From the sequence record OZ418230.1: a stretch of 42,499 nt of DNA. One strand, 5' to 3'. Positions 737 through 27,166 of this stretch are shown one piece after another. The DNA is from a phage. Below the pieces are notes generated by a model. That model was not told the origin of the DNA. It did not search any database and was given only the letters and a program-made list of their open reading frames with translations. Made by a program: the position numbers and the translations under genes. The stretch's first letter is position 1; each line of letters begins with the position of its first letter.

Positions 737-4417
<3,681 letters not shown>

Positions 4418-4437
<20 letters not shown>

Positions 4438-5749: not shown

Positions 5750-5758
5750 GAGGCAGTT

Positions 5759-6091: not shown

Positions 6092-6146
6092 TCTTCCCCT
6101 TCATCAACAAAGGCCGCCTGTGCGGCTTTTTTTATGGAAATAATTT

Positions 6147-7172
6147 ATGTCTGTATATACAACTGCAGAATTACTGGCATCGACCCAGCATCACTTTAAG
6201 TTCGATCCGCTGTTTCTGCGCCTGTTTTTCCGTGAAACCTATCCTTTCACCACGGAGAAAGTCTATCTCTCACAAATTCCGGGACTGGTAAACATGGCGC
6301 TGTACGTTTCGCCGATTGTTTCCGGTGAGGTTATCCGATCCCGTGGCGGCTCCACCTCTGAATTTACGCCGGGTTATGTCAAACCCAAGCATGAGGTGAA
6401 TCCGCAGATGACCCTGCGTCGCCTGCCGGATGAAGAACCGCAGAACCTGGCTGACCCGGCTTACCGTCGTCGCCGTATTATTCGGCAGAATATGCTGGAT
6501 GAAAATCTGGCGATTGCCCAGGTCGAAGAGATGCAGGCAGTTTCTGCCGTGCTTAAGGGCAAATACACCATGACCGGTGAAGCCTTCGATCCGGTTGAGG
6601 TGGATATGGGCCGCAGTGAGGCGAATAACATCACGCAGTCCGGCGGCACGGAGTGGAGCAAGCGTGACAAGTCCACGTATGATCCGACCGACGATATCGA
6701 AGCCTACGCGCTGAACGCCAGCGGAGTGGTGAATATCATCGTGTTTGATCCGAAAGGCTGGGCGCTGTTCCGTTCCTTCAAAGCCGTCAGGGAGAAGCTG
6801 GATACTCGTCGCGGCTCTCATTCCGAGCTGGAGACAGCGGTGAAAGACCTGGGCAAAGCGGTGTCCTACAAGGGGATGTATGGCGATGTGGCCATCGTCG
6901 TGTATTCCGGACAGTACGTGGAAAACGGCGTCAAAAAGAACTTCCTGCCGGACAACACGATGGTGCTGGGGAACACTCAGGCACGCGGTCTGCGCACCTA
7001 TGGCTGCATTCAGGATGCGGACGCACAGCGCGAAGGCATTAACTCCTCTGCCCGTTACCCGAAAAACTGGGTGACCACCGGCGATCCGGCGCGTGAGTTC
7101 ACCATGATTCAGTCAGCACCGCTGATGCTGCTGGCTGACCCTGATGAGTTCGTGTCCGTACAACTGGCGTAA
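6147..7172 (+). CDS. E: major capsid protein E
   Basis: 341 aa, matches lambda gpE. Confidence 0.95.
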   Translation: MSVYTTAELLASTQHHFKFDPLFLRLFFRETYPFTTEKVYLSQIPGLVNMALYVSPIVSGEVIRSRGGSTSEFTPGYVKPKHEVNPQMTLRRLPDEEPQNLADPAYRRRRIIRQNMLDENLAIAQVEEMQAVSAVLKGKYTMTGEAFDPVEVDMGRSEANNITQSGGTEWSKRDKSTYDPTDDIEAYALNASGVVNIIVFDPKGWALFRSFKAVREKLDTRRGSHSELETAVKDLGKAVSYKGMYGDVAIVVYSGQYVENGVKKNFLPDNTMVLGNTQARGLRTYGCIQDADAQREGINSSARYPKNWVTTGDPAREFTMIQSAPLMLLADPDEFVSVQLA

Positions 7173-7213
7173 TCGTGGCCCTTCGGGGCCATTTTCTCTA
7201 TGTGGAGGAGTCC

Positions 7214-7609
7214 ATGACGAAAGGTGAACTGATTGTCCGTCTCCGGTCGCTGGGTGAGCAACTGAACCGTGATGTCAGCCTGACGGGGACGAAAGAAGAA
7301 CTGGCGCTCCGTGTGGCAGAGCTGGAAGAGGAGCTTGATGACACGGATGACGCTGCCGGTCAGGATACCCCTCTCAGACCGGAAAATGCGCTGACCGGAC
7401 ATGAAAATGAGGTGGTATCAGCGCAGCCGGATACCATGATTGATACGGCTGCTCTGGTCACGGTCGTGGCACTGGTGACGCTGCATACTGATGCACTTCA
7501 CGCCACGCGGGATGAACCTGTGGCATTTGTGCTGCCGGGAACGGCGTTTCGTGTCTCTGCCGGTGTGGCAGCCGAAATGACAGAACGTGGCCTGGCCAGA
7601 ATGCAATAA
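7214..7609 (+). CDS. FI: DNA packaging protein FI
   Basis: Starts MTKGELIVRLRSLGEQLNRD... as lambda FI; ATG at 7214 in frame with track ORF 7175..7609. Confidence 0.85.
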   Translation: MTKGELIVRLRSLGEQLNRDVSLTGTKEELALRVAELEEELDDTDDAAGQDTPLRPENALTGHENEVVSAQPDTMIDTAALVTVVALVTLHTDALHATRDEPVAFVLPGTAFRVSAGVAAEMTERGLARMQ

Positions 7610-7620
7610 CGGGAGGCGCT

Positions 7621-7974
7621 GTGGCTGATTTCGATAACCTGTTCGATGCTGCCATTGCCCGCGCCGATGAAACGATACGCGGGTACATGGGAACGTCAGC
7701 CACCATGACATCCGGTGAGCAGTCCGGCGCAGTAATACGTGGTGTTTTTGATGACCCTGAAAATATCAGCTATGCCGGACAGGGCGTACGCGTTGAAGGC
7801 TCCAGCCCGTCCCTGTTTGTCCGGACTGATGATGTGCGGCAGCTGCGGCGCGGCGACACGCTGACCATCGGTGAGGAAAACTTCTGGATAGACCGGATTT
7901 CGCCGGATGATGGTGGAAGCTGTCATCTCTGGCTTGGGCGGGGCGTACCGCCTGCCGTTAACCGTCGCCGCTGA
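7621..7974 (+). CDS. FII: head-tail connector FII
   Basis: 117 aa, GTG start, matches lambda FII. Confidence 0.9.
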   Translation: MADFDNLFDAAIARADETIRGYMGTSATMTSGEQSGAVIRGVFDDPENISYAGQGVRVEGSSPSLFVRTDDVRQLRRGDTLTIGEENFWIDRISPDDGGSCHLWLGRGVPPAVNRRR

Positions 7975-7985
7975 AAGGGGGATGT

Positions 7986-8564
7986 ATGGCCATAAAAGGT
8001 CTTGAGCAGGCCGTTGAAAACCTCAGCCGTATCAGCAGAACGGCGGTGCCTGGTGCCGCCGCAATGGCCATTAACCGCGTTGCTTCATCCGCGATATCGC
8101 AGTCGGCGTCACAGGTTGCCCGTGAGACAAAGGTACGCCGGAAACTGGTAAAGGAAAGGGCCAGGCTGAAAAGGGCCACGGTCAAAAATCCGCAGGCCAG
8201 AATCAGGGTTAACCGGGGGGATTTGCCCGTAATAAAGCTGGGTAACGCGCGGATTGTCCTGTCCCGACGCAGGCGTCGTAAAAAGGGGCAGCGTTCAGCC
8301 CTGAAAGGTGGCGGCAGCGTGCTTGTGGTGGGAAACCGTCGTATTCCCGGCGCGTTTATTCAGCAACTGAAAAATGGCCGCTGGCATGTTATGCAGCGTG
8401 TGGCCGGGAAAAATCGTTACCCCATTGATGTGGTGAAAATTCCGATGGCGGTGCCGCTGACCACGGCGTTTAAACAGAATATTGAGCGGATACGGCGTGA
8501 GCGTCTTCCGAAAGAGCTGGGCTATGCGCTGCAGCATCAACTGAGGATGGTAATAAAGCGATGA
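7986..8564 (+). CDS. Z: tail completion protein Z
   Basis: 192 aa, lambda gpZ-like. Confidence 0.9.
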   Translation: MAIKGLEQAVENLSRISRTAVPGAAAMAINRVASSAISQSASQVARETKVRRKLVKERARLKRATVKNPQARIRVNRGDLPVIKLGNARIVLSRRRRRKKGQRSALKGGGSVLVVGNRRIPGAFIQQLKNGRWHVMQRVAGKNRYPIDVVKIPMAVPLTTAFKQNIERIRRERLPKELGYALQHQLRMVIKR

Positions 8565-8956
8565 AACATACTGAACTCCGTGCAGCCGTACTGGATGCAC
8601 TGGAGAAGCATGACACCGGGGCGACGTTTTTTGATGGTCGCCCCGCTGTTTTTGATGAGGCGGATTTTCCGGCAGTTGCCGTTTATCTCACCGGCGCTGA
8701 ATACACGGGCGAAGAGCTGGACAGCGATACCTGGCAGGCGGAGCTGCATATTGAAGTTTTCCTGCCTGCTCAGGTGCCGGATTCAGAGCTGGATTCGTGG
8801 ATGGAGTCCCGGATTTATCCGGTGATGAGCGATATCCCGGCACTGTCAGATTTGATCACCAGTATGGTGGCCAGTGGCTATGACTACCGGCGCGACGATG
8901 ATGCGGGCCTGTGGAGTTCAGCCGATCTGACTTATGTCATTACCTATGAAATGTGA
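8561..8956 (+). CDS. U: tail terminator protein U
   Basis: 131 aa, ATGA overlap with Z, lambda gpU-like. Confidence 0.9.
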
Positions 8957-8963
8957 GGACGAT

Positions 8964-9704
8964 ATGCCAACACCAAATCCTCTGGCACCGGTGAAAGGGG
9001 CCGGGACCACACTGTGGGTTTATAAGGGGAACGGTGACCCTTATGCGAACCCGCTTTCAGACGTTGACTGGTCGCGTCTGGCTAAAGTTAAAGACCTGAC
9101 GCCCGGCGAACTGACCGCTGAGTCCTATGACGACAGTTATCTCGATGATGAAGATGCGGACTGGACCGCGACCGGACAGGGGCAGAAATCTGCCGGAGAT
9201 ACCAGCTTCACGCTGGCGTGGATGCCCGGAGAGCAGGGGCAGCAGGCGCTGCTGGCGTGGTTTAATGAAGGGGATACCCGAGCCTATAAAATCCGCTTCC
9301 CGAACGGCACGGTCGATGTGTTCCGCGGCTGGGTCAGCAGTATCGGTAAGGCGGTGACGGCGAAGGAAGTGATCACCCGCACGGTGAAGGTCACCAATGT
9401 GGGCCGTCCGTCGATGGCAGAAGATCGCAGCACGGTGACGGCGACAACCGGCATGACGGTGACACCCGCCAGTGCTTCCGTAGTGAAAGGGCAGAGCACC
9501 ACGCTGACCGTGGCATTCCAGCCGGAGGGCGCAACCGACAAGAGCTTCCGTGCGGTGTCTGCGGATAAAACAAAAGCCACCGTGTCGGTCAGTGGTATGA
9601 CCATCACCGTGAAAGGTGTTGCTGCAGGCAAGGTCAACATTCCGGTCGTATCCGGTAATGGTGAGTTTGCTGCGGTTGCAGAAATCAACGTCACCGCCAG
9701 TTAA
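8964..9704 (+). CDS. V: major tail tube protein V
   Basis: 246 aa from [20 protein letters not shown]...; lambda gpV including C-terminal Ig-like domain. Confidence 0.9.
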
Positions 9705-9719
9705 TCCGGAGAGTCAGCG

Positions 9720-10142
9720 ATGTTCCTGAAAACCGAATCATTTGAACATAACGGTGTGACCGTCACGCTTTCTGAACTGTCAGCCCTGCAGCGTATTGAG
9801 CATCTCGCCCTGATGAAACGGCAGGCAGAACAGGCGGAGTCAGACAGCAACCGGAAGTTTACTGTGGAAGACGCCATCAGAACCGGCGCGTTTCTGGTGG
9901 CGATGTCCCTGTGGCATAACCATCCGAAGAAGACAAAGCTGCCTTCCATGAATGAAGCCGTTAAACAGATTGAGCAGGAAGTGCTTACCACCTGGCCCAC
10001 AGAGGCAATTTCTCATGCTGAAAACGTGGTGTACCGGCTGTCCGGTATGTATGAGTTTGTGGTGAATGATGCCCCTGAACAGGCAGAGGACGCCGGGTCT
10101 GCAGAGCCTGTTTCTGCGGGAAAGTGTTCGACGGTGAGCTGA
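9720..10142 (+). CDS. G: tail assembly chaperone G
   Basis: 140 aa, lambda gpG-like; contains slippery site near 3' end. Confidence 0.9.
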   Translation: MFLKTESFEHNGVTVTLSELSALQRIEHLALMKRQAEQAESDSNRKFTVEDAIRTGAFLVAMSLWHNHPKKTKLPSMNEAVKQIEQEVLTTWPTEAISHAENVVYRLSGMYEFVVNDAPEQAEDAGSAEPVSAGKCSTVS

Positions 10143-10558
10143 GTTTTGCCCTGAAACTGGCGCGTGAGATGGGGCGACCTGACTGGCGCGCCATGCTTGC
10201 CGGGATGTCATCCACAGAGTATGCCGACTGGCACCGCTTTTACAGTACCCATTATTTTCATGATGTTCTGCTGGATATGCACTTTTCCGGGCTGACGTAC
10301 ACCGTGCTCAGCCTGTTTTTCAGCGATCCGGATATGCATCCGCTGGATTTCAGTCTGCTGAACCGGCGTGAGGCTGACGAAGAGCCTGAAGATGATGTGC
10401 TGATGCAGAAAGCGGCAGGGCTTGCCGGAGGCGTCCGCTTTGCCCCGGACGGAAATGAAGTTATCCCCGCTTCCCCGGATATGGCGGGCATGACGGAGGA
10501 TGACGTAATGCTGATGACAGTATCAGAAGGGATCGCAGGAGGAGTCCGGTATGGCTGA
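10124..10558 (+). CDS. T: T portion of the G-T tail assembly chaperone (made by -1 frameshift from G)
   Basis: ORF in -1 frame relative to G, beginning at the slippery heptamer G GGA AAG (10118..10124); lambda gpT-like. Confidence 0.85.
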   Translation: MFDGELSFALKLAREMGRPDWRAMLAGMSSTEYADWHRFYSTHYFHDVLLDMHFSGLTYTVLSLFFSDPDMHPLDFSLLNRREADEEPEDDVLMQKAAGLAGGVRFAPDGNEVIPASPDMAGMTEDDVMLMTVSEGIAGGVRYG

Positions 10559-13130
10559 ACCGGTAGGCGATCTGGTCGTTGATTTAAGTCTGGATGCGGC
10601 CAGATTTGACGAGCAGATGGCCAGAGTCAGGCGTCATTTTTCCGGTACGGAAAGTGATGCGAAAAAAACAGCGGCAGTCGTTGAACAGTCGCTGAGCCGA
10701 CAGGCGCTGGCTGCACAGAAAGCGGGGATTTCCGTCGGGCAGTATAAAGCTGCCATGCGTATGCTGCCTGCGCAGTTCACTGACGTGGCCACGCAGCTTG
10801 CAGGCGGGCAAAGTCCGTGGCTGATCCTGCTGCAACAGGGTGGTCAGGTGAAGGACTCCTTCGGCGGGATGATCCCCATGTTCAGGGGGCTTGCCGGTGC
10901 GATCACCCTGCCGATGGTCGGGGCCACCTCGCTGGCGGTGGCGACCGGTGCGCTGGCGTATGCCTGGTATCAGGGCAACTCAACCCTGTCCGATTTCAAT
11001 AAAACGCTGGTCCTTTCCGGTAATCAGGCGGGACTGACGGCAGATCGTATGCTGGCCCTGTCCAGATCCGGGCAGGCGGCAGGGCTGACGTTTAACCAGA
11101 CCAGCGAGTCACTGACGGCGCTGGTGAATGCCGGTGTGCGTGGTGGTGAGCAGTTTGAGGCAATCAGCCAGAGTGTGGCGCGTTTCTCCTCTGCATCCGG
11201 CGTGGAGGTGGACAAGGTCGCTGAAGCCTTCGGGAAGCTGACCACTGACCCGACGTCTGGGTTGACGGCGATGGCGCGCCAGTTCCATAACGTGACGGCG
11301 GAACAGATTGCGTATGTTGCTCAGTTGCAGCGTTCCGGCGATGGGGCCGGGGCATTGCAGGCGGCGAACGAGGCCGCAACGAAAGGGTTTGATGACCAGA
11401 CCCGTAAACTGAAAGATAACATGGGTACGCTGGAGACCTGGGCAGACAAGACTGCACAGGCATTCAAATCCATGTGGGATGCGGTGCTGGATATTGGTCG
11501 CCCGGACTCCTCTGCAGATATGCTCGCCAAAGCTGAAAAGGCTTTTGATGAAGCGGATAAAAAATGGCAGTGGTATCAGAGCCGAAGCCACCGGCGCGGT
11601 AAAACGTCAGCATTTCTTGCCAATCTCCGGGGGGCATGGGAGAAGAGAGAGAATGCGCGACTTGGGCTTTCAGCCGCCACGTTGCAGGCAGATCTTGAAA
11701 AGGCCAGTGAGATGGCAGCAAAAGATCGGGCCGAGTCTGAGGCATCACGGCTGAAATATACCGAAGAGGCGCAGAAGGCTTACGAACGCCTGCAGACACC
11801 GCTGGAGAAATATACCGCCCGCCAGGAGGAACTGAATAAGGCACTGAAAGACGGAAAAATCCTGCAGGCAGATTACAACACGCTGATGGCGGCGGCGAAA
11901 AAGGACTATGAAGCGACGCTGAAAAAGCCGAAGCAGTCCGGCGTGAAAGTGTCTGCGGGCGATCGTCAGGAAGACAGTGCTCATGCTGCCCTGCTGACGC
12001 TTCAGGCAGAACTCCGGACGCTGGAGAAGCATGCCGGAGCGAATGAGAAAATCAGCCAGCAGCGCCGGGATTTGTGGAAGGCAGAAAGTCAGTTCGCGGT
12101 ACTGGAGGAGGCGGCACAACGTCGCCAGCTGTCCGCACAGGAGAAATCCCTGCTGGCGCATAAAGACGAGACGCTGGAGTACAAACGCCAGCTGGCTGTA
12201 CTTGGCGACAAGGTCACCTATCAGGAGCACCTGAACGCGCTGGCGCAGCAGGCGGATAAGTTCGCACAGCAACAACGGGCAAAACGGGCCGCCATTGATG
12301 CAAAAAAACGGGGGCTGACTGACCGGCAGGCAGCGCGGGAAGCCACGGAACAGCGCCTGAAGGAACAGTATGGCGATAATCCGCTGGCGCTGAATAACGT
12401 CATGTCAGAGCAGAAAAAGACCTGGGCGGCTGAAGACCAGCTTCGCGGGAGCTGGATGGCAGGCCTGAAGTCCGGCTGGAGTGAGTGGGAAGAGAGCGCC
12501 ACGGACAGTATGTCGCAGGTTAAAAGTGCTGCCACGCAGACCTTTGATGGTATTGCACAGAATATGGCGGCGATGCTGACCGGCAGTGAGCAGAACTGGC
12601 GCAGCTTCACCCGTTCCGTGCTGTCCATGATGACAGAAATTCTGCTTAAGCAGGCAATGGTGGGGATTGTCGGGAGTATCGGCAGCGCCATTGGCGGGGC
12701 TGTTGGTGGCGGCGCGTCCGCGTCAGGCGGTACAGCCATTCAGGCCGCTGCGGCGAAATTCCATTTTGCAACCGGAGGATTTACGGGAACCGGCGGCAAA
12801 TATGAGCCAGCGGGGATTGTTCACCGCGGTGAATTTGTCTTCACGAAGGAGGCAACCAGCCGGATTGGCGTGGGGAATCTCTACCGGCTGATGCGCGGCT
12901 ATGCCACCGGTGGTTATGTCGGTACACCGGGCAGCATGGCGGACAGCCGGTCGCAGGCGTCCGGGAAGTTTGAGCAGAATAACCATGTGGTGATTAACAA
13001 CGACGGCACGAACGGTCAGATAGGGCCACAGGCGCTGAAGGCGGTTTATGACGTAGCCCGTAAGGCGGCAATGGATGTTGTGACCGGGCAGATGCGTGAT
13101 GGTGGTCTGTTCTCCGGAGGTGGACGATGA
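10551..13130 (+). CDS. H: tail tape measure protein H
   Basis: 859 aa, lambda gpH-like (lambda 853 aa). Confidence 0.95.
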   Translation: MAEPVGDLVVDLSLDAARFDEQMARVRRHFSGTESDAKKTAAVVEQSLSRQALAAQKAGISVGQYKAAMRMLPAQFTDVATQLAGGQSPWLILLQQGGQVKDSFGGMIPMFRGLAGAITLPMVGATSLAVATGALAYAWYQGNSTLSDFNKTLVLSGNQAGLTADRMLALSRSGQAAGLTFNQTSESLTALVNAGVRGGEQFEAISQSVARFSSASGVEVDKVAEAFGKLTTDPTSGLTAMARQFHNVTAEQIAYVAQLQRSGDGAGALQAANEAATKGFDDQTRKLKDNMGTLETWADKTAQAFKSMWDAVLDIGRPDSSADMLAKAEKAFDEADKKWQWYQSRSHRRGKTSAFLANLRGAWEKRENARLGLSAATLQADLEKASEMAAKDRAESEASRLKYTEEAQKAYERLQTPLEKYTARQEELNKALKDGKILQADYNTLMAAAKKDYEATLKKPKQSGVKVSAGDRQEDSAHAALLTLQAELRTLEKHAGANEKISQQRRDLWKAESQFAVLEEAAQRRQLSAQEKSLLAHKDETLEYKRQLAVLGDKVTYQEHLNALAQQADKFAQQQRAKRAAIDAKKRGLTDRQAAREATEQRLKEQYGDNPLALNNVMSEQKKTWAAEDQLRGSWMAGLKSGWSEWEESATDSMSQVKSAATQTFDGIAQNMAAMLTGSEQNWRSFTRSVLSMMTEILLKQAMVGIVGSIGSAIGGAVGGGASASGGTAIQAAAAKFHFATGGFTGTGGKYEPAGIVHRGEFVFTKEATSRIGVGNLYRLMRGYATGGYVGTPGSMADSRSQASGKFEQNNHVVINNDGTNGQIGPQALKAVYDVARKAAMDVVTGQMRDGGLFSGGGR

Positions 13131-13456
13131 AAACCTTCCGCTGGAAAGTGAAACCGGGTATGGATGTGGCTTCGACTCCTTCCGTCAGGGAGGTGCGCTT
13201 TGGTGATGGTTACTCCCAGCGCGCGCCTGCCGGGCTGAATGCCAACCTGAAAACGTACAGCGTGACGCTTTCTGTCCCCCGTTGGGAGGCCACGGCGCTG
13301 GAATCGTTTCTGGCAGAGCACGGAGGCTGGAAAGCCTTTCTGTGGACGCCGCCTTATGACTGGCGGCAGATAAAGGTGATCTGCGCAAAATGGACGTCGC
13401 GGGTCAGTATGCTGCGTGTTGAGTTCAGCGCAGAGTTTAAACAGGTGGTGAACTGA
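13127..13456 (+). CDS. M: tail tip protein M
   Basis: 109 aa, lambda gpM. Confidence 0.9.
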   Translation: MKTFRWKVKPGMDVASTPSVREVRFGDGYSQRAPAGLNANLKTYSVTLSVPRWEATALESFLAEHGGWKAFLWTPPYDWRQIKVICAKWTSRVSMLRVEFSAEFKQVVN

Positions 13457-14154
13457 TGCAGGATATCCGGCAGGAAACACTGAATGAATGCACCCGTGCG
13501 GAGCAGTCGGCCAGCGTGGTGCTCTGGGAAATCGATCTGACAGAGGTCGGTGGTGAACGTTATTTTTTCTGTAATGAGCAGAACGAAAAAGGTGAGCCGG
13601 TTACCTGGCAGGGGCGGCAGTATCTGGCGTATCCCATTCAGGGGAGTGGTTTTGAACTGAATGGCAAAGGCACCAGTACGCGCCCCACGCTGGCAGTCTC
13701 TAACCTGTACGGTATGGTCACCGGGATGGCGGAAGATCTGCAGAGTCTGGTCGGCGGAACGGTGGTCAGGCGTAAGGTTTACGCCCGTTTTCTGGATGCG
13801 GTGAACTTCGTCAACGGAAACAGTGACGCCGATCCGGAGCAGGAGGTGATCAGCCGCTGGCGCATCGAGCAGTGCAGCGAACTGAGCGCGGTCAGTGCCT
13901 CCTTTGTGTTGTCCACACCAACGGAAACGGATGGTGCTGTTTTTCCGGGGCGCATCATGCTGGCCAACACCTGCACCTGGACCTATCGCGGTGATGAGTG
14001 CGGTTATAACGGTCCGGCTGTCGCGGATGAATATGACCAGCCGACGTCCGATATCACGAAGGATAAATGCAGCAAATGCCTGAGCGGCTGTAAGTTTCGC
14101 AATAACGTCGGCAACTTTGGCGGCTTCCTTTCCATTAACAAACTTTCGCAGTAA
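13456..14154 (+). CDS. L: tail tip protein L
   Basis: 232 aa, lambda gpL (MQDIRQETLNECTRAEQSASVV...). Confidence 0.95.
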   Translation: MQDIRQETLNECTRAEQSASVVLWEIDLTEVGGERYFFCNEQNEKGEPVTWQGRQYLAYPIQGSGFELNGKGTSTRPTLAVSNLYGMVTGMAEDLQSLVGGTVVRRKVYARFLDAVNFVNGNSDADPEQEVISRWRIEQCSELSAVSASFVLSTPTETDGAVFPGRIMLANTCTWTYRGDECGYNGPAVADEYDQPTSDITKDKCSKCLSGCKFRNNVGNFGGFLSINKLSQ

Positions 14155-14159
14155 ATCCC

Positions 14160-14903
14160 ATGACACAGACAGAATCAGCGATTCTGGCGCACGCCCGGCG
14201 ATGTGCGCCAGCGGAGTCGTGCGGCTTCGTGGTAAGCACGCCGGAGGGGGAAAGATATTTTCCCTGCGTGAATATCTCCGGTGAGCCGGAGGCGTATTTC
14301 CGTATGTCGCCGGAAGACTGGCTGCAGGCAGAAATGCAGGGTGAGATTGTGGCGCTGGTCCACAGCCACCCCGGTGGTCTGCCCTGGCTGAGTGAGGCCG
14401 ACCGGCGGCTGCAGGTGCAGAGTGATTTGCCGTGGTGGCTGGTCTGCCGGGGGACGATTCATAAGTTCCGCTGTGTGCCGCATCTCACCGGGCGGCGCTT
14501 TGAGCACGGTGTGACGGACTGTTACACACTGTTCCGGGATGCTTATCATCTGGCGGGGATTGAGATGCCGGACTTTTATCGTGAGGATGACTGGTGGCGT
14601 AACGGCCAGAATCTCTATCTGGATAATCTGGAGGCGACGGGGCTGTATCAGGTGCCGTTGTCAGCGGCACAGCCGGGCGATGTGCTGCTGTGCTGTTTTG
14701 GTTCATCAGTGCCGAATCACGCCGCAATTTACTGCGGCGACGGCGAGCTGCTGCACCATATTCCTGAACAACTGAGCAAACGAGAGAGGTACACCGACAA
14801 ATGGCAGCGACGCACACACTCCCTCTGGCGTCACCGGGCATGGCGCGCATCTGCCTTTACGGGGATTTACAACGATTTGGTCGCCGCATCGACCTTCGTG
14901 TGA
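14160..14903 (+). CDS. K: tail tip assembly protein K (JAMM/NlpC-P60-like)
   Basis: Lambda K sequence; HSHPGG motif present. Longest ORF used; the classical lambda annotation starts at the internal Met corresponding to 14304. Confidence 0.85.
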   Translation: MTQTESAILAHARRCAPAESCGFVVSTPEGERYFPCVNISGEPEAYFRMSPEDWLQAEMQGEIVALVHSHPGGLPWLSEADRRLQVQSDLPWWLVCRGTIHKFRCVPHLTGRRFEHGVTDCYTLFRDAYHLAGIEMPDFYREDDWWRNGQNLYLDNLEATGLYQVPLSAAQPGDVLLCCFGSSVPNHAAIYCGDGELLHHIPEQLSKRERYTDKWQRRTHSLWRHRAWRASAFTGIYNDLVAASTFV

Positions 14904-15472
14904 AAACGGGGGCTGAAGCCATCCGGGCACTGGCCACACAGCTCCCGGCGTTTCGTCAGAAACTGAGCGACGGCTGGTATCAGGTACGGATTGCCGGGCG
15001 GGACGTCAGCACGTCCGGGTTAACGGCGCAGTTACATGAGACTCTGCCTGATGGCGCTGTGATTCATATTGTTCCCAGAGTCGCCGGGGCCAAGTCAGGT
15101 GGCGTATTCCAGGTTGTCCTGGGGGCTGCCGCCATTGCCGGATCATTCTTTACCGCCGGAGCCACCCTTGCAGCATGGGGGGCAGCCATTGGGGCCGGTG
15201 GTATGACCGGCATCCTGTTTTCTCTCGGTGCCAGTATGGTGCTCGGTGGTGTGGCGCAGATGCTGGCACCGAAAGCCAGAACTCCCCGTACACAGACAAC
15301 GGATAACGGCAAACAGAACACCTATTTCTCCTCACTGGATAACATGGTTGCCCAGGGCAATGTTCTGCCGGTTCTGTACGGTGAAATGCGCGTGGGGTCA
15401 CGCGTGGTTTCTCAGGAGATCAGCACGGCAGACGAAGGGGATGGTGGTCAGGTTGTGGTGATTGGTCGCTGA
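14801..15472 (+). CDS. I: tail tip assembly protein I
   Basis: 223 aa, overlaps K by 103 bp exactly as in lambda. Confidence 0.9.
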   Translation: MAATHTLPLASPGMARICLYGDLQRFGRRIDLRVKTGAEAIRALATQLPAFRQKLSDGWYQVRIAGRDVSTSGLTAQLHETLPDGAVIHIVPRVAGAKSGGVFQVVLGAAAIAGSFFTAGATLAAWGAAIGAGGMTGILFSLGASMVLGGVAQMLAPKARTPRTQTTDNGKQNTYFSSLDNMVAQGNVLPVLYGEMRVGSRVVSQEISTADEGDGGQVVVIGR

Positions 15473-15532
15473 TGCAAAATGTTTTATGTGAAACCGCCTC
15501 CGGGCGGTTTTGTCGTTTATGGAGCATGACGA

Positions 15533-19058: not shown

Positions 19059-19073
19059 ATTTGTGGAGTGAAT

Positions 19074-21095
19074 ATGGCAGTACAGATTTCAGGTGTGCTG
19101 AAAGACGGTGCAGGAAAACCGATACAGAACTGCACCATTCAGCTCAAAGCAAAACGTAACAGCACCACAGTTGTGGTGAACACGGTGGCCTCAGAAAATC
19201 CGGATGAAGCCGGACGTTACAGCATGGATGTTGAGTATGGCCAGTACAGCGTCGCCCTGCTGGTTGAAGGTTTTCCGCCTTCACATGCCGGGACCATCAC
19301 CGTGTATGAGGATTCTAAGCCGGGGACATTGAATGATTTTCTGGGCGCTGCAACAGAAGATGATGTTTGTCCGGAGGCACTGTATCGTTTTGAAAAGATG
19401 GTGGAAGAGGCGGCACGCAACGCTGAAGCCGCCTCTCAGAGCGCAGCGGCAGCAAAGAAATCAGAAACAGCAGCGGCATCGTCCAGGAACGCGGCGAAAA
19501 CATCAGAGACGAATGCAGGTAACAGCGCGAAAGCGGCAGCTTCTTCAAAAACAGCCGCACAAAACGCAGCAACAGCGGCAGAACGTTCAGAGACAAATGC
19601 CCGTGCGTCAGAAGAAGCCTCCGCAGACAGTGAAGAGGCTTCCCGCCGTAATGCAGAGTCAGCCGCTGAAAATGCCGGAGTCGCCACCACAAAAGCGCGG
19701 GAGGCCGCAGCAGACGCAACAAAGGCCGGGCAGAAAAAGGATGAGGCTCTGTCGGCAGCGACACGAGCTGAAAAGGCGGCAGACCGCGCAGAAGCCGCAG
19801 CGGAAGTGACTGCAGAGCCCTGTGCGAATATAGTGCCGCCGCTGCCTGATGTGTGGATACCGTTTAACGATTCACTGGATATGATTACGGGTTTTTCGCC
19901 ATCTTATAAAAAGATAGTTATTGGTGACGATGAAATAACAATGCCAGGCGACAAGATTGTTAAGTTTAAACGTGCTTCAACAGCAACGTATATTAATAAG
20001 TCCGGCCAACTCAAGCTTGCTGAAGTTGACGAACCGCGATTTGAGCGCGATGGCTTATTGATTGAAGGACAGAGGACAAATTATCTGAGGAACTCAAATA
20101 AACCAGACTCATGGACTGTTCATTCCGCACTGAATAAAACATTTGGCACTGATAAACAGGGGTTCAATTATGCCACGGTGACACCCACGGAAAGTATAGT
20201 GGGAACAACAGGTGGCTATACTGTGCATGGTGTGGTTGCAGCAGACAGATTCCCGCTGGCAAGTGGTGAATGTTTCACTTTTTCGTGCCGGGTTAAAGGC
20301 GCTAAAGCACGATGCAGGTTAAGAGTTTCAGTTATTATTGGTGGAACAGATACCTTCTCTGCTGACTCTTATCTTGATCTGGATACCCGGATCGCAACAG
20401 TAAGCGGTAATACATCCCTTATAACAGCCAAAGCTGAACAACAGGGCGAGTGGACCTACTATGAGGCCACTTATACAGCTAATACGGACATTGATACCGT
20501 TAACTGTGCTTTTTATATGACAAATAAAATAAGTAATGAGCCATTCTATGATGACTCAACATTAACCATGACGACGCCGCAAATTGAACTGGGCAATACG
20601 GCATCGTCATTTATTGTAACTACAATGCCAACAACACGCGCAAGTGATGTAGTTACTATCCCATCGCAGAATAACCTGTCAACACGGCCTTTTACGGTAT
20701 TGTGCGAAGTAAGCAGGAACTGGAGTACACCGCCCAATGTTGCGCCAAGGATATTTGATGTTGGAGGGCACAGTATTGATGATAATTATTTATCGCTGGG
20801 GTTTGTTGCAACAGGAAAGATAAGCGCCAACGTAGGAATGGTTCAGCCACAAATTGCCTCAGATGGAGAAAGGTTCATTGTGGGTGTGAGAGCTAAATCT
20901 GATTTATCAGTAAATGCAATATGCAATGGTAATTATACAACAAACCTTAATGGTAAAATATTTGGAGTTACAGCAACATCGTACCGGTTTGGTGGGCAGA
21001 CCGCAGCAGGAACGCGTCATTTGTTTGGACACATCAGAAATTTCAGAGTCTGGTTTAAAGAATTAAATGACAGGCAAATCAAGGAGGCAGTATGA
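19074..21095 (+). CDS. stf: side tail fibre protein, mosaic (lambda Stf-like N-terminus, Ala-rich repeat region, divergent distal domain)
   Basis: N-terminal ~110 aa match lambda orf-401/Stf (MAVQISGVLKDGAGKPIQNCTIQLKA...); central A/S/E-rich repeats with recurring SETNA motifs; C-terminal ~420 aa not lambda-like and lower GC. Confidence 0.8.
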   Translation: MAVQISGVLKDGAGKPIQNCTIQLKAKRNSTTVVVNTVASENPDEAGRYSMDVEYGQYSVALLVEGFPPSHAGTITVYEDSKPGTLNDFLGAATEDDVCPEALYRFEKMVEEAARNAEAASQSAAAAKKSETAAASSRNAAKTSETNAGNSAKAAASSKTAAQNAATAAERSETNARASEEASADSEEASRRNAESAAENAGVATTKAREAAADATKAGQKKDEALSAATRAEKAADRAEAAAEVTAEPCANIVPPLPDVWIPFNDSLDMITGFSPSYKKIVIGDDEITMPGDKIVKFKRASTATYINKSGQLKLAEVDEPRFERDGLLIEGQRTNYLRNSNKPDSWTVHSALNKTFGTDKQGFNYATVTPTESIVGTTGGYTVHGVVAADRFPLASGECFTFSCRVKGAKARCRLRVSVIIGGTDTFSADSYLDLDTRIATVSGNTSLITAKAEQQGEWTYYEATYTANTDIDTVNCAFYMTNKISNEPFYDDSTLTMTTPQIELGNTASSFIVTTMPTTRASDVVTIPSQNNLSTRPFTVLCEVSRNWSTPPNVAPRIFDVGGHSIDDNYLSLGFVATGKISANVGMVQPQIASDGERFIVGVRAKSDLSVNAICNGNYTTNLNGKIFGVTATSYRFGGQTAAGTRHLFGHIRNFRVWFKELNDRQIKEAV

Positions 21096-21370
21096 AAGAT
21101 TTAACTTTGAAATTTCCTGGTAACAGAGAGTTTAAATCCTTCCTGTCATCTCTTGACTGGGAGGAGGATGAAGACCTCCAGAATAAACTGTTAGTCGATG
21201 AAATTGGTTTCACCTACACAGAAACAGGGGTAACAGAAGAGGGAGAACCTGTCTGTGTCCGGAATGACGGTTATTTTGTCAACATTCGCATTCTTGATGA
21301 CTTGTTTGATGTTTCTGTATTCTCTGATTATGTCGTGGAGCTGGAAACACCGCTTCGGGAATGGAGCTGA
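21092..21370 (+). CDS. small acidic hypothetical protein (possible tail fibre chaperone)
   Basis: 92-aa ORF with ATGA overlap on stf stop; no family recognised. Confidence 0.45.
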   Translation: MKDLTLKFPGNREFKSFLSSLDWEEDEDLQNKLLVDEIGFTYTETGVTEEGEPVCVRNDGYFVNIRILDDLFDVSVFSDYVVELETPLREWS

Positions 21371-21382
21371 AAGGAGGAAATA

Positions 21383-21610
21383 ATGGATATAAGCCCCTTA
21401 CTTCATGCACTTTGTGCTGTGGCTGCGCAGATACTGGTTGGTCTTTTTACCGGAAACTGGGCTTACGGAGCGATAGCCGGTTGTACGTTCTTCATTGCGC
21501 GTGAACATACCCAGGCAGAATATCGCTGGATTGAAATGTTCGGGCATGGCAAGCGAATGAATATGCCGTGGTGGGGCGGTTTTGATGTTACGCCATATGG
21601 GCTGGACTGA
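21383..21610 (+). CDS. hypothetical small hydrophobic protein
   Basis: 75-aa ORF with hydrophobic N-terminus; its last codons run into the icd-homologous segment in a different frame, so could be fortuitous. Confidence 0.3.
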
Positions 21611-21749
21611 AGCCGCAGACCTGATTGTTAAAGGTATGGAAGGCGCAATCAACGCCAAGACTGTAACCTATGACTTCGAACGTCTGATGGAAGGCGCTAA
21701 ATTGCTGAAATGTAGCGAGTTTGGCGACGCGATCATCAAGAACATGTAA
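21585..21749 (+). other. attP-associated substitute 3' end of host icd (isocitrate dehydrogenase)
   Basis: Open frame translating [54 protein letters not shown], near-identical to the E. coli Icd C-terminus; phages 21 and e14 integrate in icd. Confidence 0.8.
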
Positions 21750-21772: not shown

Positions 21773-21800
21773 AACGGGCGTGTTATACGCCCGTTGTTTT
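21773..21800 (+). terminator. rho-independent terminator following the icd 3' segment
   Basis: Stem aacgggcg/cgcccgtt with 7-nt loop followed by gtttt. Confidence 0.65.
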
Positions 21801-21815
21801 ATGATGATGTAAAAT

Positions 21816-21852
21816 CTTCCCCAAAACTTTCCCCAAAACCCTTCCCCAAAAC
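21816..21852. repeat. three tandem 12-13 bp direct repeats (c/t)ttccccaaaac; candidate integrase arm-type sites
   Basis: cttccccaaaac / tttccccaaaac / ccttccccaaaac in direct succession between the icd segment and the int 3' end. Confidence 0.6.
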
Positions 21853-21862: not shown

Positions 21863-23005
21863 CTATGCTGTTTTGATATCTACGATAACCCAGTCTTTAC
21901 CACGATCATCATTGTATCGGTCGGTCATTTTTCTGGATTTATGGCCTAACAACTTTTGCGTATCCAGACCCTGTTCCCGATATAACCGTTCTGACAGAGA
22001 TCGCTGCTCATGAAATGTGGGCGCAGTTCCTTGCTCCCATTTTATGCCACATTTTTCCCTGGCCTTTTTAAAAGCCGTTGTCAGAGTATTTGCAGAAACC
22101 TGGTCTCCTCTGTTTGCTTGAGAGGTAGTGTGACGGTAATGGACCAGATATTTACTAACAACAGCATCCCTGCACTGAGATATAACTTCACGAAGGGTAA
22201 TATTCAGAGCATCGCATTTCAGGTTAAGCGGAATAGCAAGTTTTGAACCGGTTTTTTCCTGAGTAATGTGCAACATGTCGTCCCAGATATCAGAGAATTT
22301 CAAATTGCAGATATCACCTAAACGTTGTCCAGTAACAAGAGCAAGTAGCATGCCGCATTTTAAATAGGGCTGCCGTCTGCTTACGCTTTCAAATATTGCC
22401 TGCCATTCGGGCAGTGACAATCTTTGGCGGTTTACTCGATTTCGCGGTTGTTTTGTTGCCTGCGCTGGGTTAAATCCTGGCGGAACATGTCCTGCGTGTT
22501 GTGCTTCTTTGAAGACGTCGATCAACACCATTCTCACGACTTGCGCCATCCTGTTATGACCTTCAGCCTTTACAGCATCAATTATTTCGGCAATATCAAG
22601 TGCGGTAATATCCTTGAGGTGTTGCATTCCACAATGCTCACGGAAAAGACGAATGGGTTTGCCTTTTTGCCGATAGGAGTTGGGTCTTAGTTCATTATGT
22701 TGCAGCCTGTCCTCCTGGATAGAAATATATTTATCAAGCCATTCTGTCACCGTAATTTCTGAGCGCCTGCCTTTCATTCTTTCCAGACGCTCATTGACGC
22801 TTAATATTTGTCGGGTACGTTGTTCAGCAATAATGGTATTTGCTTCAGTAGCAACTTGTTTTGCTTCATTCTCATCAGTTCCTAAGCTATGAAAACGACC
22901 GGATAGTGGATGTTTGTATTGCCAATATACCTTTCCGGTTCGCTTATCTAATTTGCAATATAAATTGGGTATAGAGATTTTGTGAGATCGGGGTCTAGCA
23001 GCCAT
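21863..23005 (-). CDS. int: tyrosine integrase, phage 21/e14 (icd-targeting) type
   Basis: 380 aa with tyrosine-recombinase C-terminal region (…HEQRSLSERLYREQGLDTQKLLGHKS…); resembles e14 IntE from memory; adjacent to attP. Confidence 0.9.
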   Translation of the reverse strand: MAARPRSHKISIPNLYCKLDKRTGKVYWQYKHPLSGRFHSLGTDENEAKQVATEANTIIAEQRTRQILSVNERLERMKGRRSEITVTEWLDKYISIQEDRLQHNELRPNSYRQKGKPIRLFREHCGMQHLKDITALDIAEIIDAVKAEGHNRMAQVVRMVLIDVFKEAQHAGHVPPGFNPAQATKQPRNRVNRQRLSLPEWQAIFESVSRRQPYLKCGMLLALVTGQRLGDICNLKFSDIWDDMLHITQEKTGSKLAIPLNLKCDALNITLREVISQCRDAVVSKYLVHYRHTTSQANRGDQVSANTLTTAFKKAREKCGIKWEQGTAPTFHEQRSLSERLYREQGLDTQKLLGHKSRKMTDRYNDDRGKDWVIVDIKTA

Positions 23006-23231
23006 CAGCGATTATCCGTTGGAGTTTTGGGTTTGCGTTTATTGGGAGTTGCGGTTCTGCAAGCGTTCCTACAAAACGGGAATTTCGGTCAATCATCCAG
23101 TAGCGACCAACTTTTATAGCGGGTGGGGCCATCATTTTCCCTTGCGCGTATTTTTTCAGAACTCGCTCACTTGGTGCTAAGTCCCCAAATTCTTCTTTAG
23201 CCCAGTCCTGTAAAGTGATTAGTCGAGACAT
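22995..23231 (-). CDS. xis: excisionase
   Basis: 78-aa ORF overlapping int start by 11 bp, position typical of xis. Confidence 0.75.
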   Translation of the reverse strand: MSRLITLQDWAKEEFGDLAPSERVLKKYAQGKMMAPPAIKVGRYWMIDRNSRFVGTLAEPQLPINANPKLQRIIADGC

Positions 23232-25290: not shown

Positions 25291-26072
25291 GCTGCCACCT
25301 TCTGTTCAGTGGCTTTTTGTTTCAGGAATCCAAGAGCTTTCACTGCTTCGTCCTGTGTCAGTTCTGACGATGCACGAATGTCGCGGCGAAATATCTGGGA
25401 ACAGAGCGGCAATAAGTCGTCATCCCATGTTTTATCCAGGGCGATCAGCAGAGTGTTAATCTCCTGCATGGTTTCATCGTTAACCGGAGTGATGTCGCGT
25501 TCCGGCTGACGTTCTGCAGTGTATGCGGTATTTTCGACAATGCGCTCGGCTTCATCCTTGTCATAGATACCAGCAAATCCGAAGGCGAGACGGGCACACT
25601 GAATCATGGCTTTATGCCGTAACATCCGTTTGGGATGCGACTGCCACGGCCCCGTGATTTCTCTGCCTTCGCGAGTTTTGAATGGTTCGCGGCGGCATTC
25701 ATCCATCCATTCGGTAACGCAGATCGGATGATTACGGTCCTTGCGGTAAATCCGGCATGTACAGGATTCATTGTCCTGCTCAAAGTCCATGCCATCAAAC
25801 TGCTGGTTTTCATTGATGATGCGGGACCAGCCATCAACGCCCACCACCGGAACGATGCCGTTCTGCTTATCAGGGAAGGCGTAAATTTCTTTCGTCCACG
25901 GATTAAGGCCGTACTGGTTGGCGACGATCAACAATGCGATGAACTGCGCATCGCTGGCATCACCTTTAAATGCCGTCTGGCGAAGAGTGGTGATCAGTTC
26001 CTGTGGGTCGACAGAATCCATGCCGACACGTTCAGCCAGCTTCCCTGCCAGCGTTGCGAGTGCTGTACTCAT
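25287..26072 (-). CDS. bet: Red-beta single-strand annealing protein
   Basis: 261 aa, lambda Bet. Confidence 0.95.
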
Positions 26073-26077
26073 CCGTT

Positions 26078-26494
26078 TTATACCTCTGAATCAATATCAA
26101 CCTGGTGGTGAGCAATGGTTTCAACCATGTACCGGATGTGTTCTGCCATGCGCTCCTGAAACTCAACATCGTCATCAAACGCACGGGTAATGGCTTTTTT
26201 GCTGGCCCCGTGGCGTTGCAAATGATCGATGCATAGCGATTCAAACAGGTGCTGGGGCAGGCCTTTTTCCATGTCGTCTGCCAGTTCTGCCTCTTTCTCT
26301 TCACGGGCGATCTGCTGGTAGTGACGCGCCCAGCTCTGAGCCTCAAGACGATCCTGAATGTAATAAGCGTTCATGGCTGAACTCCTGAAATAGCTGTGAA
26401 AATATCGCCCGCGAAATGCCGGGCTGATTAGGAAAACAGGAAAGGGGGTTAGTGAATGCTTTTGCTTGATCTCAGTTTCAGTATTAATATCCAT
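26078..26494 (-). CDS. gam: Gam, RecBCD inhibitor
   Basis: 138 aa, lambda Gam (long form). Confidence 0.95.
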
Positions 26495-26592
26495 TTTTTA
26501 TAAGCGTCGACGGCCTCACGAAACATCTTTTCATCGCCAATAAAAGTGGCGATAGTGAATTTAGTCTGGATAGCCATAAGTGTTTGATCCAT
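26449..26592 (-). CDS. kil: Kil (host cell-division inhibitor)
   Basis: 47-aa product [47 protein letters not shown] as lambda Kil; the track ORF 26449..26718 is an upstream extension. Confidence 0.8.
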
Positions 26593-26725
26593 TTTTTGGG
26601 ACTCCTGGCTGATTAAGTATGTCGATAAGGCGTTTCCATCCGTCACGTAATTTACGGGTGATTCGTTCAAGTAAAGATTCGGAAGGGCAGCCAGCAACAG
26701 GCCACCCTGCAATGGCATATTGCAT
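26561..26725 (-). CDS. cIII: CIII (FtsH inhibitor stabilising CII)
   Basis: Manual translation gives the 54-aa [54 protein letters not shown], lambda CIII; below the track length cutoff. Confidence 0.8.
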   Translation of the reverse strand: MQYAIAGWPVAGCPSESLLERITRKLRDGWKRLIDILNQPGVPKNGSNTYGYPD

Positions 26726-26797
26726 GGTGTGCTCCTTATTTATACATAACGAAAAACGCCTCGAGTGAAGCGTTATTGGTATGCGGTAACGCCGCGC

Positions 26798-27166
26798 TCA
26801 GGCGGCTTTGATAGTCATATCATCTGAATCAAATATTCCTGATGTATCGATATCGGTAATTCTTATTCCTTCGCTACCATCCATTGGAGGCCATCCTTCC
26901 TGACCATTTCCATCATTCCAGTCGAACTCACACACAACACCATATGCATTTAAGTCGCTTGAAATTGCTATAAGCAGAGCATGTTGCGCCAGCATGATTA
27001 ATACAGCATTTAATACAGAGCCGTGTTTATTGAGTCGGTATTCAGAGTCTGACCAGAAATTATTAATCTGGTGAAGTTTTTCCTCTGTCATTACGTCATG
27101 GTCGATTTCAATTTCTATTGATGCTTTCCAGTCGTAATCAATGATGTATTTTTTGATGTTTGACAT
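26798..27166 (-). CDS. ea10: Ea10 protein
   Basis: 122 aa matching lambda Ea10. Confidence 0.9.
   Translation of the reverse strand: MSNIKKYIIDYDWKASIEIEIDHDVMTEEKLHQINNFWSDSEYRLNKHGSVLNAVLIMLAQHALLIAISSDLNAYGVVCEFDWNDGNGQEGWPPMDGSEGIRITDIDTSGIFDSDDMTIKAA

Follow-up and report, generated by a model that had tools for sequence, protein, structure and literature searches.

Two small genes between the side tail fibre gene and attP of a phage-21-like coliphage: an intact fibre-linked gene and a membrane-protein gene truncated by a deletion

The two small ORFs that lie between the side tail fibre gene and attP in sequence record OZ418230.1 (the window, that is, the whole stretch of 42,499 nucleotides that was analysed) are, to judge from profile matches, ordinary genes of conserved but uncharacterised phage protein families. 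ORF1 is intact, while ORF2 comprises the first 68 codons of a gene for a 97-aa three-helix inner-membrane protein, which has been cut by a 5,550-bp deletion and fused to the icd fragment of the attachment site. An explanation that combines a fibre-linked ORF1, an ORF2 stump and a deletion resembling b2 of phage lambda is probably correct, and current understanding is not overturned by these two ORFs.

Genome setting and conservation of the two ORFs

The genome in the window, given in virion order, is that of a lambdoid phage of the phage 21 type (Jouyvirus). With the exception of two rearrangements, its last 27 kb are nearly identical in sequence to the Lambda_2E9/1H12 group, and its length can be derived from that of Lambda_2E9: 46,702 bp, less the 5,550 bp deleted, plus a 1,336-bp IS2 insertion (with target duplication) and small indels, gives a complete genome of 42.5 kb. 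The side tail fibre gene (675 aa; 19068–21095, plus strand) is followed on the same strand by ORF1 (92 aa; 21092–21370) and ORF2 (75 aa; 21383–21610). The start codon of ORF1 overlaps the fibre stop codon as ATGA (21092–21095), 12 nt separate ORF1 from ORF2, and an AAGGAGG or AGGAGG ribosome-binding site lies 5–6 nt 5' of each. Next come a 164-bp 3' fragment of icd (21586–21749, plus strand; the last 54 icd codons), the intrinsic terminator of this fragment (21773–21795, plus strand; annotated as such in phage 21) and three tandem arm-type integrase sites, YYTTCCCCAAAA (21815–21851, plus strand), which constitute the retained P' arm. Beyond these, on the minus strand, are genes for a tyrosine integrase (380 aa; 21863–23005; Pfam Arm-DNA-bind_1, E=1.7e-28; Phage_integrase, E=1.1e-23) and for an excisionase (78 aa; 22995–23231) matching in position and length the annotated excisionase of phage 21 and Lambda_2E9. 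This arrangement bears out the assignment of attP in an earlier note on this DNA, from which the coordinates and sizes of the two ORFs, the acidity of ORF1, the hydrophobic N-terminus of ORF2 and their tight packing were likewise confirmed. Between 21583 and 21740, where the query ended, the window matches the icd gene of lysogens at 100 % identity, and the fragment, annotated in phage 21 as an ICDH-like pseudogene, restores icd after integration. The terminator would also end the fibre–ORF1–ORF2 transcript.

Both ORFs match PHROG families to which PHROG assigns no function. ORF1 is a full-length member of PHROG 1361 (E=1.6e-39, residues 1–91 on positions 1–91 of the 92-position profile), and ORF2 matches PHROG 1443 (E=1.9e-41) over positions 1–69 of 97 only; with such matches the two are more than chance ORFs. 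Conservation, together with synonymous versus non-synonymous variation, had been suggested as a check on the reading frames, and it speaks for both: among distant homologues of either gene, with synonymous sites at saturation, dN reaches only 0.30–0.38, a pattern that indicates purifying selection.

ORF2 is a truncated gene

In the window, ORF2 consists of codons 1–68 of a conserved 97-aa gene and seven out-of-frame codons from the icd fragment. The annotations of phage 21, Lambda_2E9 and PhiR57_1 include full-length copies, and residues 1–68 of ORF2 are identical to those of CPT_21_24 (a putative membrane protein of phage 21) and VUD36489 (Lambda_2E9). In both relatives the reading frame runs to 97 aa, and sitDCBA, small ORFs and an entire attP come after it, whereas in the window it breaks off after codon 68 and continues directly into the icd fragment. 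The last base of codon 68 (GAT) is 21586, where the icd-homologous block begins; codons 69–75 (VTPYGLD) and the stop codon belong to the icd fragment, in a frame one base off that of icd. As a result ORF2 fails to match PHROG 1443 at full length, its C-terminal 28 residues being replaced by seven unrelated ones, and it is a truncated member of that family. The earlier note had doubted that ORF2 is real, placing its last eight or so codons inside the icd segment in another frame. The doubt was justified, because the deletion created a 3'-truncated remnant; the codons are indeed out of frame, and they number seven plus the stop.

The first 38 or so residues of ORF2 are hydrophobic, and a model of the full-length protein (pLDDT 93.8) has helices at residues 4–23, 26–53 and 74–96. 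Because the window copy is without the third helix and six near-invariant residues (W72, S76, D79, P83 and C87 among them), the stump is probably non-functional. A small membrane protein, as had been proposed for ORF2, is thus an apt description of the family and not of the truncated copy in the window. It is unlikely that the 75-aa product functions as a shortened variant, namely as a membrane protein with two helices and the conserved loop ending in MPWWGGFD. Residues 1–68, which include most of the invariant positions, are intact and a strong ribosome-binding site precedes the gene, but the helix and residues just named are gone. The more than 30 full-length relatives in the alignment all have at least 93 aa, and database entries below this length are frameshifts or contig-end artefacts. 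In an annotation of the genome, ORF2 is best labelled as truncated or as a pseudogene.

The exact 75-aa product was not found among about 15 billion proteins. We also considered codon 68 as a recombination hotspot and rejected the idea: in the databases, variants with unusual C-termini diverge at many different positions and resemble frameshifts. One such variant ends in what appears to be Nextera sequencing-adapter sequence.

The deletion and attP

Identity to Lambda_2E9 is 100 % on each side of 21586, on the left as far as position 21574 of the Lambda_2E9 record and on the right from position 27124, so that 5,550 bp are missing; the two ends have a single T in common at the junction (21586). 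Between the corresponding points, the genomes of Lambda_2E9, phage 21 and PhiR57_1 and the prophage of strain 118UI carry the 3' part of the 97-aa ORF, sitDCBA, small ORFs and the P arm. The deletion accordingly cost the phage sitABCD, three small ORFs and the left arm (P) of attP. The SitABCD iron/manganese transporter is carried by about 70 % of related gut lambda phages (PMC6969025). An arm-type site, CTTTCCCCAAAA, which in Lambda_2E9 lies 120 bp to the left of the attP/attB identity block (record positions 26993–27004), is absent from the window, where only the three P' copies of consensus YYTTCCCCAAAA remain.

Alignment of attP, attL, attR and attB places the start of the identity block at 21586. 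When the attL and attR of e14 are compared with the attB of MC4100, the crossover is confined to the first 10 bp of this block, TGTTACGCCA (21586–21595, plus strand; the attP core). This position derives from e14, another element than the window phage, and by analogy the 10-bp segment would be the crossover region for the integrase of the window phage as well; phage 21 and e14 reportedly use the same attB, to go by the title of a paper on the two. The right end of the deletion is the first base of the segment thus bounded by e14, and only the right-hand context of TGTTACGCCA is retained in the window.

In the att-defective b2 deletion of lambda, non-essential DNA of the b region is lost along with the P arm of attP; on the right the deletion ends in the att core, and the right half of the core, the P' arm, int and xis remain. 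The window phage likewise is without b-region DNA contiguous with attP, the P-arm site included, its deletion has one endpoint in the core/crossover region as mapped with e14, and it keeps the right half of the core, the P' arm, int and xis. The two differ in integrase and core, that of the window phage being the icd site, and in the left breakpoint, which here has no core-like secondary site. The likening of this region to the b region of lambda in the earlier note was apt, but nearly the whole of it is deleted in the window phage. By analogy with lambda b2, the phage should grow lytically and not integrate by itself, and attP should be annotated as being without a P arm and the phage as probably integration-defective.

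Origin of the deletion

We hypothesize that the deletion most likely arose by integrase-promoted recombination, in which the core of attP (or of attL) would have been joined to an unrelated site within ORF2. An integrase-recognised secondary site is not evident at the left breakpoint, because its sequence is unlike the att core: compared by eye, the two agree at 6 of 19 bases on the right side of the junction and at 2 of 7 on the left side. The lack of core-like sequence at the ORF2 breakpoint would sit well with a less likely, though still tenable, origin in a random illegitimate (microhomology) event or in aberrant excision from a lysogen, either of them without integrase cleavage at the core. 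The junction fits microhomology with attL equally well: the breakpoint in ORF2 shares 4 bp, TGAT, with the bacterial side of attL, as if ...TTTTGAT in ORF2 had been joined to ...GATGAT|GTTACG in attL, and only 1 bp (T) with attP. Such an origin has to contend with the position of the right end: out of some 5.8 kb of dispensable DNA, it falls on the base with which the 10-bp crossover segment starts, for which we estimate a chance of about 0.2 % if endpoints were random; and aberrant excision leftward into host DNA normally brings in host-specific bases, none of which is present.

The junction itself was not found in phage records, in 5,426 E. coli genomes, in IMG/VR or in JGI metagenomes. This uniqueness across all the collections searched is what an assembly or sequencing artefact, such as the chimeric joining of two parts of an ordinary 2E9-like genome, would also give. 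We consider an artefact highly improbable: the join is clean, in the same orientation and with 1 bp in common, there is no repeat to mislead an assembler, and the 42.5-kb genome is complete in virion order with its length fully accounted for.

ORF1 and the tail fibre

The fibre begins with the 'Prophage tail fibre N-terminal' domain (Pfam PF08400, E=2.8e-67), and the gene product matches PHROG 1419 'tail protein'. Its C-terminal 425 or so residues form a GTA-spike-fibre/LamG-type domain (NCBIfam NF048003 GTA_spike_fiber, E=3.5e-18), by which it is distinguished from Stf of lambda, and residues 253–675 are 44–45 % identical to fibres of an unrelated phage type. We examined 91 fibre loci on viral contigs, 80 with an ORF1 detectable by BLAST and 11 without. 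This C-terminal domain is directly upstream of ORF1 at every one of the 80, and it is kept at all 11 of the remainder, of which four were inspected; each of the four has a divergent 89-aa ORF1 homologue at the fibre stop codon. In four more places, in other phage backgrounds, an ORF1 homologue follows a fibre with the same type of C-terminal domain; in such backgrounds, homologues with 34–55 % identity overlap the LamG-type fibre gene at its stop codon. The nearest relatives have the same arrangement: CPT_21_23 of phage 21 (a hypothetical protein, also of 92 aa, that differs from ORF1 at seven residues, the DNA being about 94 % identical) and VUD36488 of Lambda_2E9 are both encoded directly 3' of the side tail fibre gene. 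The identical ORF1 sequence is present in at least 1000 public contigs.

ORF1 is an intact gene that shares its transcription and translation with the side tail fibre gene. On the strength of this linkage we think it likely that ORF1 acts on the conserved C-terminal domain of the fibre, as an assembly chaperone or an accessory subunit. Fibre assembly chaperones such as Tfa of lambda, the Tfa-type proteins of Mu and P2 and gp38 and gp57A of T4 are similarly encoded just 3' of a fibre gene, and ORF1 resembles them in this position, in its translational coupling to the fibre gene and in its inheritance with the C-terminal fibre module across mosaic phages. ORF1 thus has the genetic hallmark of the chaperone class, being directly 3' of the fibre gene and co-inherited with the fibre C-terminal domain, yet with 92 aa it is far smaller than Tfa (about 190 aa) and has no sequence or fold similarity to the known chaperone families (Tfa/Caudo_TAP-like). 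Of the 'possible chaperone' that had been proposed, the genetic linkage and translational coupling to the fibre therefore stand, and resemblance to known chaperones does not. The identity of ORF1 across loci follows that of the last 40 fibre residues alone (rho 0.86), not that of the hypervariable part of the fibre (rho 0.49), but in this mirror-tree style of test the pattern is inseparable from plain physical linkage, because simple linkage predicts the same. Since ORF1-type proteins are strictly coupled to one fibre domain, the small downstream gene probably must accompany the fibre when fibres are swapped between phages.

No Pfam, NCBIfam or PADLOC match above threshold was obtained for ORF1, divergent homologues included; for ORF1, ORF2 and their divergent homologues together, these scans gave only sub-threshold matches, to the PhoR N-terminus (E=0.03) and a LUD domain (E=0.01). 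An AlphaFold2 model of ORF1 has a mean pLDDT of 90.3. A Foldseek comparison with BFVD gave only uncharacterised phage proteins, and profile searches of PDB sequences gave no match. Large proteins matched in an HMM search with ORF1 were TPR-repeat proteins and were dismissed as compositional false positives. A literature search on the protein accessions and on lambdoid fibre chaperones at this position found nothing useful.

The ORF1 protein is strongly acidic (computed pI 4.05 and net charge -14.5, with 22 D+E and 8 K+R residues). This charge, the small size and the lack of similarity to known chaperones would be in keeping with an acidic DNA mimic, an anti-restriction protein or another host-takeover protein, unrelated to the fibre. 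We regard such a role as improbable, since the strict coupling of ORF1 to the stop codon of a single fibre domain type holds across unrelated backbones and its position is that of a late-operon gene. A promoter-like site was not found in the 900 or so nt upstream of ORF1, the nearest being at 20143–20171, inside the fibre gene, and anti-restriction genes are normally expressed early.

ORF1 and ORF2 as a pair

The same distance to the nearest promoter-like site counts against the suggestion, made in the earlier note, of an accessory or defence pair. It is true that ORF1 and ORF2 are adjacent at 77 of the 80 ORF1 loci, all of them in Escherichia, that they lie in a b-region/moron neighbourhood and that one product is acidic and soluble and the other a membrane protein, as might be expected of an accessory, defence or toxin–antitoxin-like pair. 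We nevertheless consider such a pair very unlikely. Pfam and NCBIfam, as described above, offer nothing in its favour, and searches of PADLOC with ORF1 and a divergent homologue of it, with full-length ORF2 and with an Aeromonas homologue of ORF2 gave no match at E<=1. The two families are, moreover, independent outside Escherichia: ORF1 is found without ORF2 in other phages, and ORF2 without ORF1 in Aeromonas, Leclercia and Salmonella, and a search outside Escherichia for ORF1 homologues between a fibre gene and ORF2 gave two marginal matches only (E about 3e-4). In some prophages a 227-aa ORF is inserted between the two genes, and in the window ORF2 is truncated and ORF1 intact.

The full-length ORF2 family

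Full-length ORF2 belongs to a widespread, highly conserved and wholly uncharacterised family of membrane proteins. Searches recovered 442 and then at least 1,921 relatives of 95–100 aa from Alpha-, Beta- and Gammaproteobacteria and Desulfovibrio, with the loop ending in MPWWGGFD near-invariant, and homology searches gave no function for them. In phages the gene is the last of receptor-binding-protein clusters with several types of fibre or tailspike, and homologues directly follow tail fibre or tailspike genes in Aeromonas, Leclercia, Salmonella, Chelativorans and Desulfovibrio. Because so many unrelated fibres and spikes are accompanied by it, the family is not receptor-specific.

Exclusion genes are known beside receptor-binding genes, among them llp of T5, cor of phi80 and N15, and gp15 of HK97, and the ORF2 family likewise encodes a small envelope protein at the end of a receptor-binding cluster. 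Our best guess, a tentative one, is that it may act at the level of the envelope, for example in superinfection exclusion or in blocking DNA entry. It differs from the Cor/Llp-type lipoproteins in having no conserved lipobox: there is no [LVI][ASTVI][GAS]C motif, and C11 is not conserved, being A, S, V or M in many members of our alignment (A2).

It is interesting to speculate, although we think all the parts together rather unlikely to hold, that the ORF1 family is a dedicated chaperone or cap for LamG/GTA-spike-type fibres, with a novel alpha/beta fold predicted for its acidic proteins of about 90 aa, that the ORF2 family is an unrecognised envelope effector, and that the deletion is a natural, b2-like one made by integrase. 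Positioned by phages at the ends of fibre operons, the effector might then block superinfection or DNA entry in a generic way, or it might be a small membrane enzyme. If so, both families would be new functional classes tied to phage receptor-binding proteins, and the phage 21 integrase would attack non-homologous secondary sites. Some members of the ORF2 family are chromosomal and adjoin ligA in sphingomonads, a location that fits poorly with a purely phage-specific role in exclusion.

ORF1 and its coupling to the fibre gene

The two small ORFs that the earlier note had described before attP, the phage integration site, are both present in the ORF list and the sequence: a 92-aa ORF (ORF1; 21092–21370, + strand), whose product is strongly acidic (pI 4.05, net charge −14.5), and a 75-aa ORF (ORF2; 21383–21610, + strand), the first ~38 residues of which are hydrophobic. 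The ATG of ORF1 and the stop codon that ends the 675-aa side tail fibre gene overlap (ATGA, 21092–21095), and each ORF has a ribosome-binding site (AAGGAGG or AGGAGG) 5–6 nt before its start. Downstream of ORF2 lie a 3′ fragment of icd (the host gene used as attB), a terminator (21773–21795), three arm-type repeats in tandem (21815–21851) and then, on the − strand, int and xis. ORF1 matches phrog_1361 (E=1.6e-39) and ORF2 matches phrog_1443 (E=1.9e-41), both of unknown function. ORF1 has 45 relatives in the databases; every one comes from Escherichia or Shigella and almost all have 92 aa, and the exact ORF1 sequence is present in at least 1000 contigs. For ORF2, a single-sequence search gave 442 relatives and a profile search 1,921. 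Frame conservation and synonymous versus non-synonymous variation, proposed earlier as a check on the reality of these genes, speak for both families: among distant homologues dN is 0.30–0.38 against saturated synonymous sites, and close ORF2 alleles show synonymous differences only. Both families are thus under purifying selection at the protein level.

ORF1 itself is intact and belongs to a conserved family coupled to the fibre gene. At its N-terminus the fibre has a lambdoid domain (PF08400); its C-terminal domain, ~425 aa long, carries an NCBIfam GTA_spike_fiber domain and finishes in a LamG-like part. The ORF1 profile found 80 IMG/VR loci, and in every one the ORF1 start coincides with the end of a fibre that has such a C-terminal domain; 11 further loci have such a fibre without a BLAST-detectable ORF1, and in all four of these that were read a divergent 89-aa ORF1 homologue overlaps the fibre stop. 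In another phage type, with a different head and tail gene set from that of the window, an ORF1 homologue (55% identity) has a 1-nt overlap with a preceding fibre of 671–704 aa, whose C-terminal domain is 44–45% identical to that of the window fibre and whose N-terminus is unrelated. Two relatives detected only by HMM (~34% identity) overlap the stop codons of upstream genes, one encoding a 622-aa fibre (weak Laminin_G_3 match) and the other a 734-aa protein without annotation. In the prophage of the E. coli lysogen 118UI (locus L014, 408–2429), RefSeq gives the fibre homologue as two pseudogene pieces, yet intact ORF1 and ORF2 follow them.

The suggestion that ORF1 and ORF2 form an accessory or defence pair is not supported. 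No defence models match, and the two families are distributed independently, the ORF2 family being present without ORF1 outside Escherichia. The nearest promoter-like site upstream of ORF1 is ~900 nt away, within the fibre gene (20143–20171), and none was seen closer. Moreover, in some E. coli prophages (L102 3307–3990; also L110 and L117) a 227-aa ORF intervenes between the ORF1-like gene and ORF2; this ORF looks coiled-coil from its sequence and has no NCBIfam match.

ORF2 as a truncated remnant

The phrog_1443 match of ORF2 spans only profile positions 1–69 of 97, and a 97-aa ORF is annotated at its place in phage 21, Lambda_2E9 (the phage used for comparison), PhiR57_1 and the 118UI prophage, followed in all four by sitDCBA on the opposite strand, small ORFs and then attP. 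Window and Lambda_2E9 are 100% identical as far as 21586 (21574 of the Lambda_2E9 record) and again from 21586 (27124 of that record), with one T shared at the junction and 5,550 bp missing. The junction base is the last of ORF2 codon 68, and codons 69–75 (VTPYGLD) and the stop are read from the icd fragment in a frame shifted by one base, so that the doubt expressed earlier over the end of ORF2 was well placed. Conservation does not extend to this 75-aa form: the exact protein was not found among ~15 billion public proteins, the junction is spanned by none of 50,697 phage records and by none of 5,426 complete E. coli genomes, and the 30-nt junction string was not found in IMG/VR or JGI metagenomes. 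In the family alignment, the near-invariant W72, S76, D79, P83 and C87 are missing from the window ORF2, and a full-length member modelled with AlphaFold2 (pLDDT 93.8) has helices at 4–23, 26–53 and 74–96, so the third has been lost. ORF2 is therefore a copy cut short by the deletion, from a membrane-protein family that is widespread and uncharacterised, and any function of that family, superinfection-exclusion-like or other, has probably been lost from the window copy. The proposal of a chaperone plus a small membrane protein, or an accessory or defence pair, is therefore supported in part, as regards the coupling of ORF1 to the fibre and the membrane nature of the ORF2 family, but not as regards the window ORF2 itself or the pairing.

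The deletion and attP

In Lambda_2E9 the icd-homologous block has a perfect arm-type site, CTTTCCCCAAAA, 120 bp to its left and three more to its right; their outer span of 397 bp agrees with the minimal attP of phage 21, which is reportedly roughly 370–420 bp. The window keeps only the three right-hand sites, and the P (left) arm is therefore gone. When attP is aligned with attL and attR of 118UI, phage/bacterial identity begins at window 21586, the orphan icd end of this strain being too like the phage copy to narrow the crossover beyond the identity block. In K-12, CAC in attL of e14 versus CAT in e14 attR and MC4100 attB confines the exchange to 10 bp, TGCTGCGCCA, the left edge of the block and the equivalent of window 21586–21595. 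The deletion thus has its endpoint at the first of these 10 bp. The lambda b2 deletion removes b-region DNA and the P arm with an endpoint in the core, and leaves the P′ arm, int and xis. The window deletion is of the b2 kind: b region and P arm are lost, the endpoint is likewise in the core and the same elements are retained. On the lambda b2 precedent, the phage would be expected to be defective in integration.

Given ~5.8 kb of dispensable DNA, a random endpoint would be expected within those 10 bp ~0.2% of the time, which favours an integrase-promoted event. Against this, the left breakpoint has no core-like sequence, the crossover position comes from e14 and not from the window phage, and the ORF2 breakpoint shares 4 bp (TGAT) with the bacterial side of attL, a microhomology through which the junction could equally have formed. 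Our current leaning, held with some reserve, is towards integrase promotion.

The deletion also removed sitABCD, carried by ~70% of related gut lambda phages (PMC6969025). Between the sit operon and attP, Lambda_2E9 and phage 21 have three small or hypothetical ORFs (41, 256 and 51 aa; L005 4645–5942, Lambda_2E9 record 25644–26941), likewise deleted in the window, and the phage 21 annotation places CII-binding motifs in this region. Comparison of icd ends (attR of 118UI, L014 ~8400–8640, versus attB of MC4100, L176) showed a phage-type icd 3′ end in many E. coli strains, even at an orphan attR or empty attB (e.g. strain 2014C-3057), as would be expected if earlier cycles of integration and excision had rewritten the end of icd.

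Overall, the window is a mosaic relative of Lambda_2E9. The 356 differences in 1–15500 are concentrated in the head genes (1–8 kb) and tail-tip genes (12–15 kb), and the remaining ~27 kb (15500–42499) differs by only three substitutions, the deletion and a 1,331-bp insertion absent from Lambda_2E9 (36901–38231, − strand); so few substitutions imply that both rearrangements are recent. The insertion, which we take to be IS2 from its recognizable InsC and InsD sequences (InsC-like ORF, 37775–38185; InsD-like ORF, 36912–37817), its length and its flanking 5-bp target duplication (TTCCG), breaks a ybgA-like (COG1683) accessory gene between Q and the lysis genes.

The full-length ORF2 family

Events like this deletion are ordinary, and the phage is of a known kind; the modest interest that remains lies in the two uncharacterised families. 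Full-length ORF2-family members are of 95–100 aa with a near-invariant stretch of 28 residues, and have no Pfam, NCBIfam, PADLOC, PDB-sequence or specific fold match. In phages the gene comes last in receptor-binding clusters of various types: after P2/HP1-type fibres in Aeromonas and Leclercia, between two tailspike genes in Salmonella, and after fibre or spike genes in Chelativorans and Desulfovibrio. In Comamonas, Pantoea and Acidovorax it is preceded, a few kb upstream, by J-like tail-tip genes. In sphingomonads it is chromosomal, and in Sphingomonas (L244 4978–5282) and a Pseudomonadota MAG (L246 4878–5225) it directly follows the NAD-dependent DNA ligase gene ligA, outside any prophage, so the family has cellular members too. 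It is thus neither bound to one receptor nor purely phage-borne. The gene's position suggests an envelope-level role, and we offer superinfection exclusion as an example only tentatively, considering such a role rather unlikely on present evidence. In Chelativorans (L206 3523–5282) the ORF2 homologue overlaps by 4 nt, in an ATGA-type arrangement, the stop codon of a fibre (PHROG 5939/1419) whose C-terminal type matches that of the window fibre, taking the place held by ORF1 in Escherichia.
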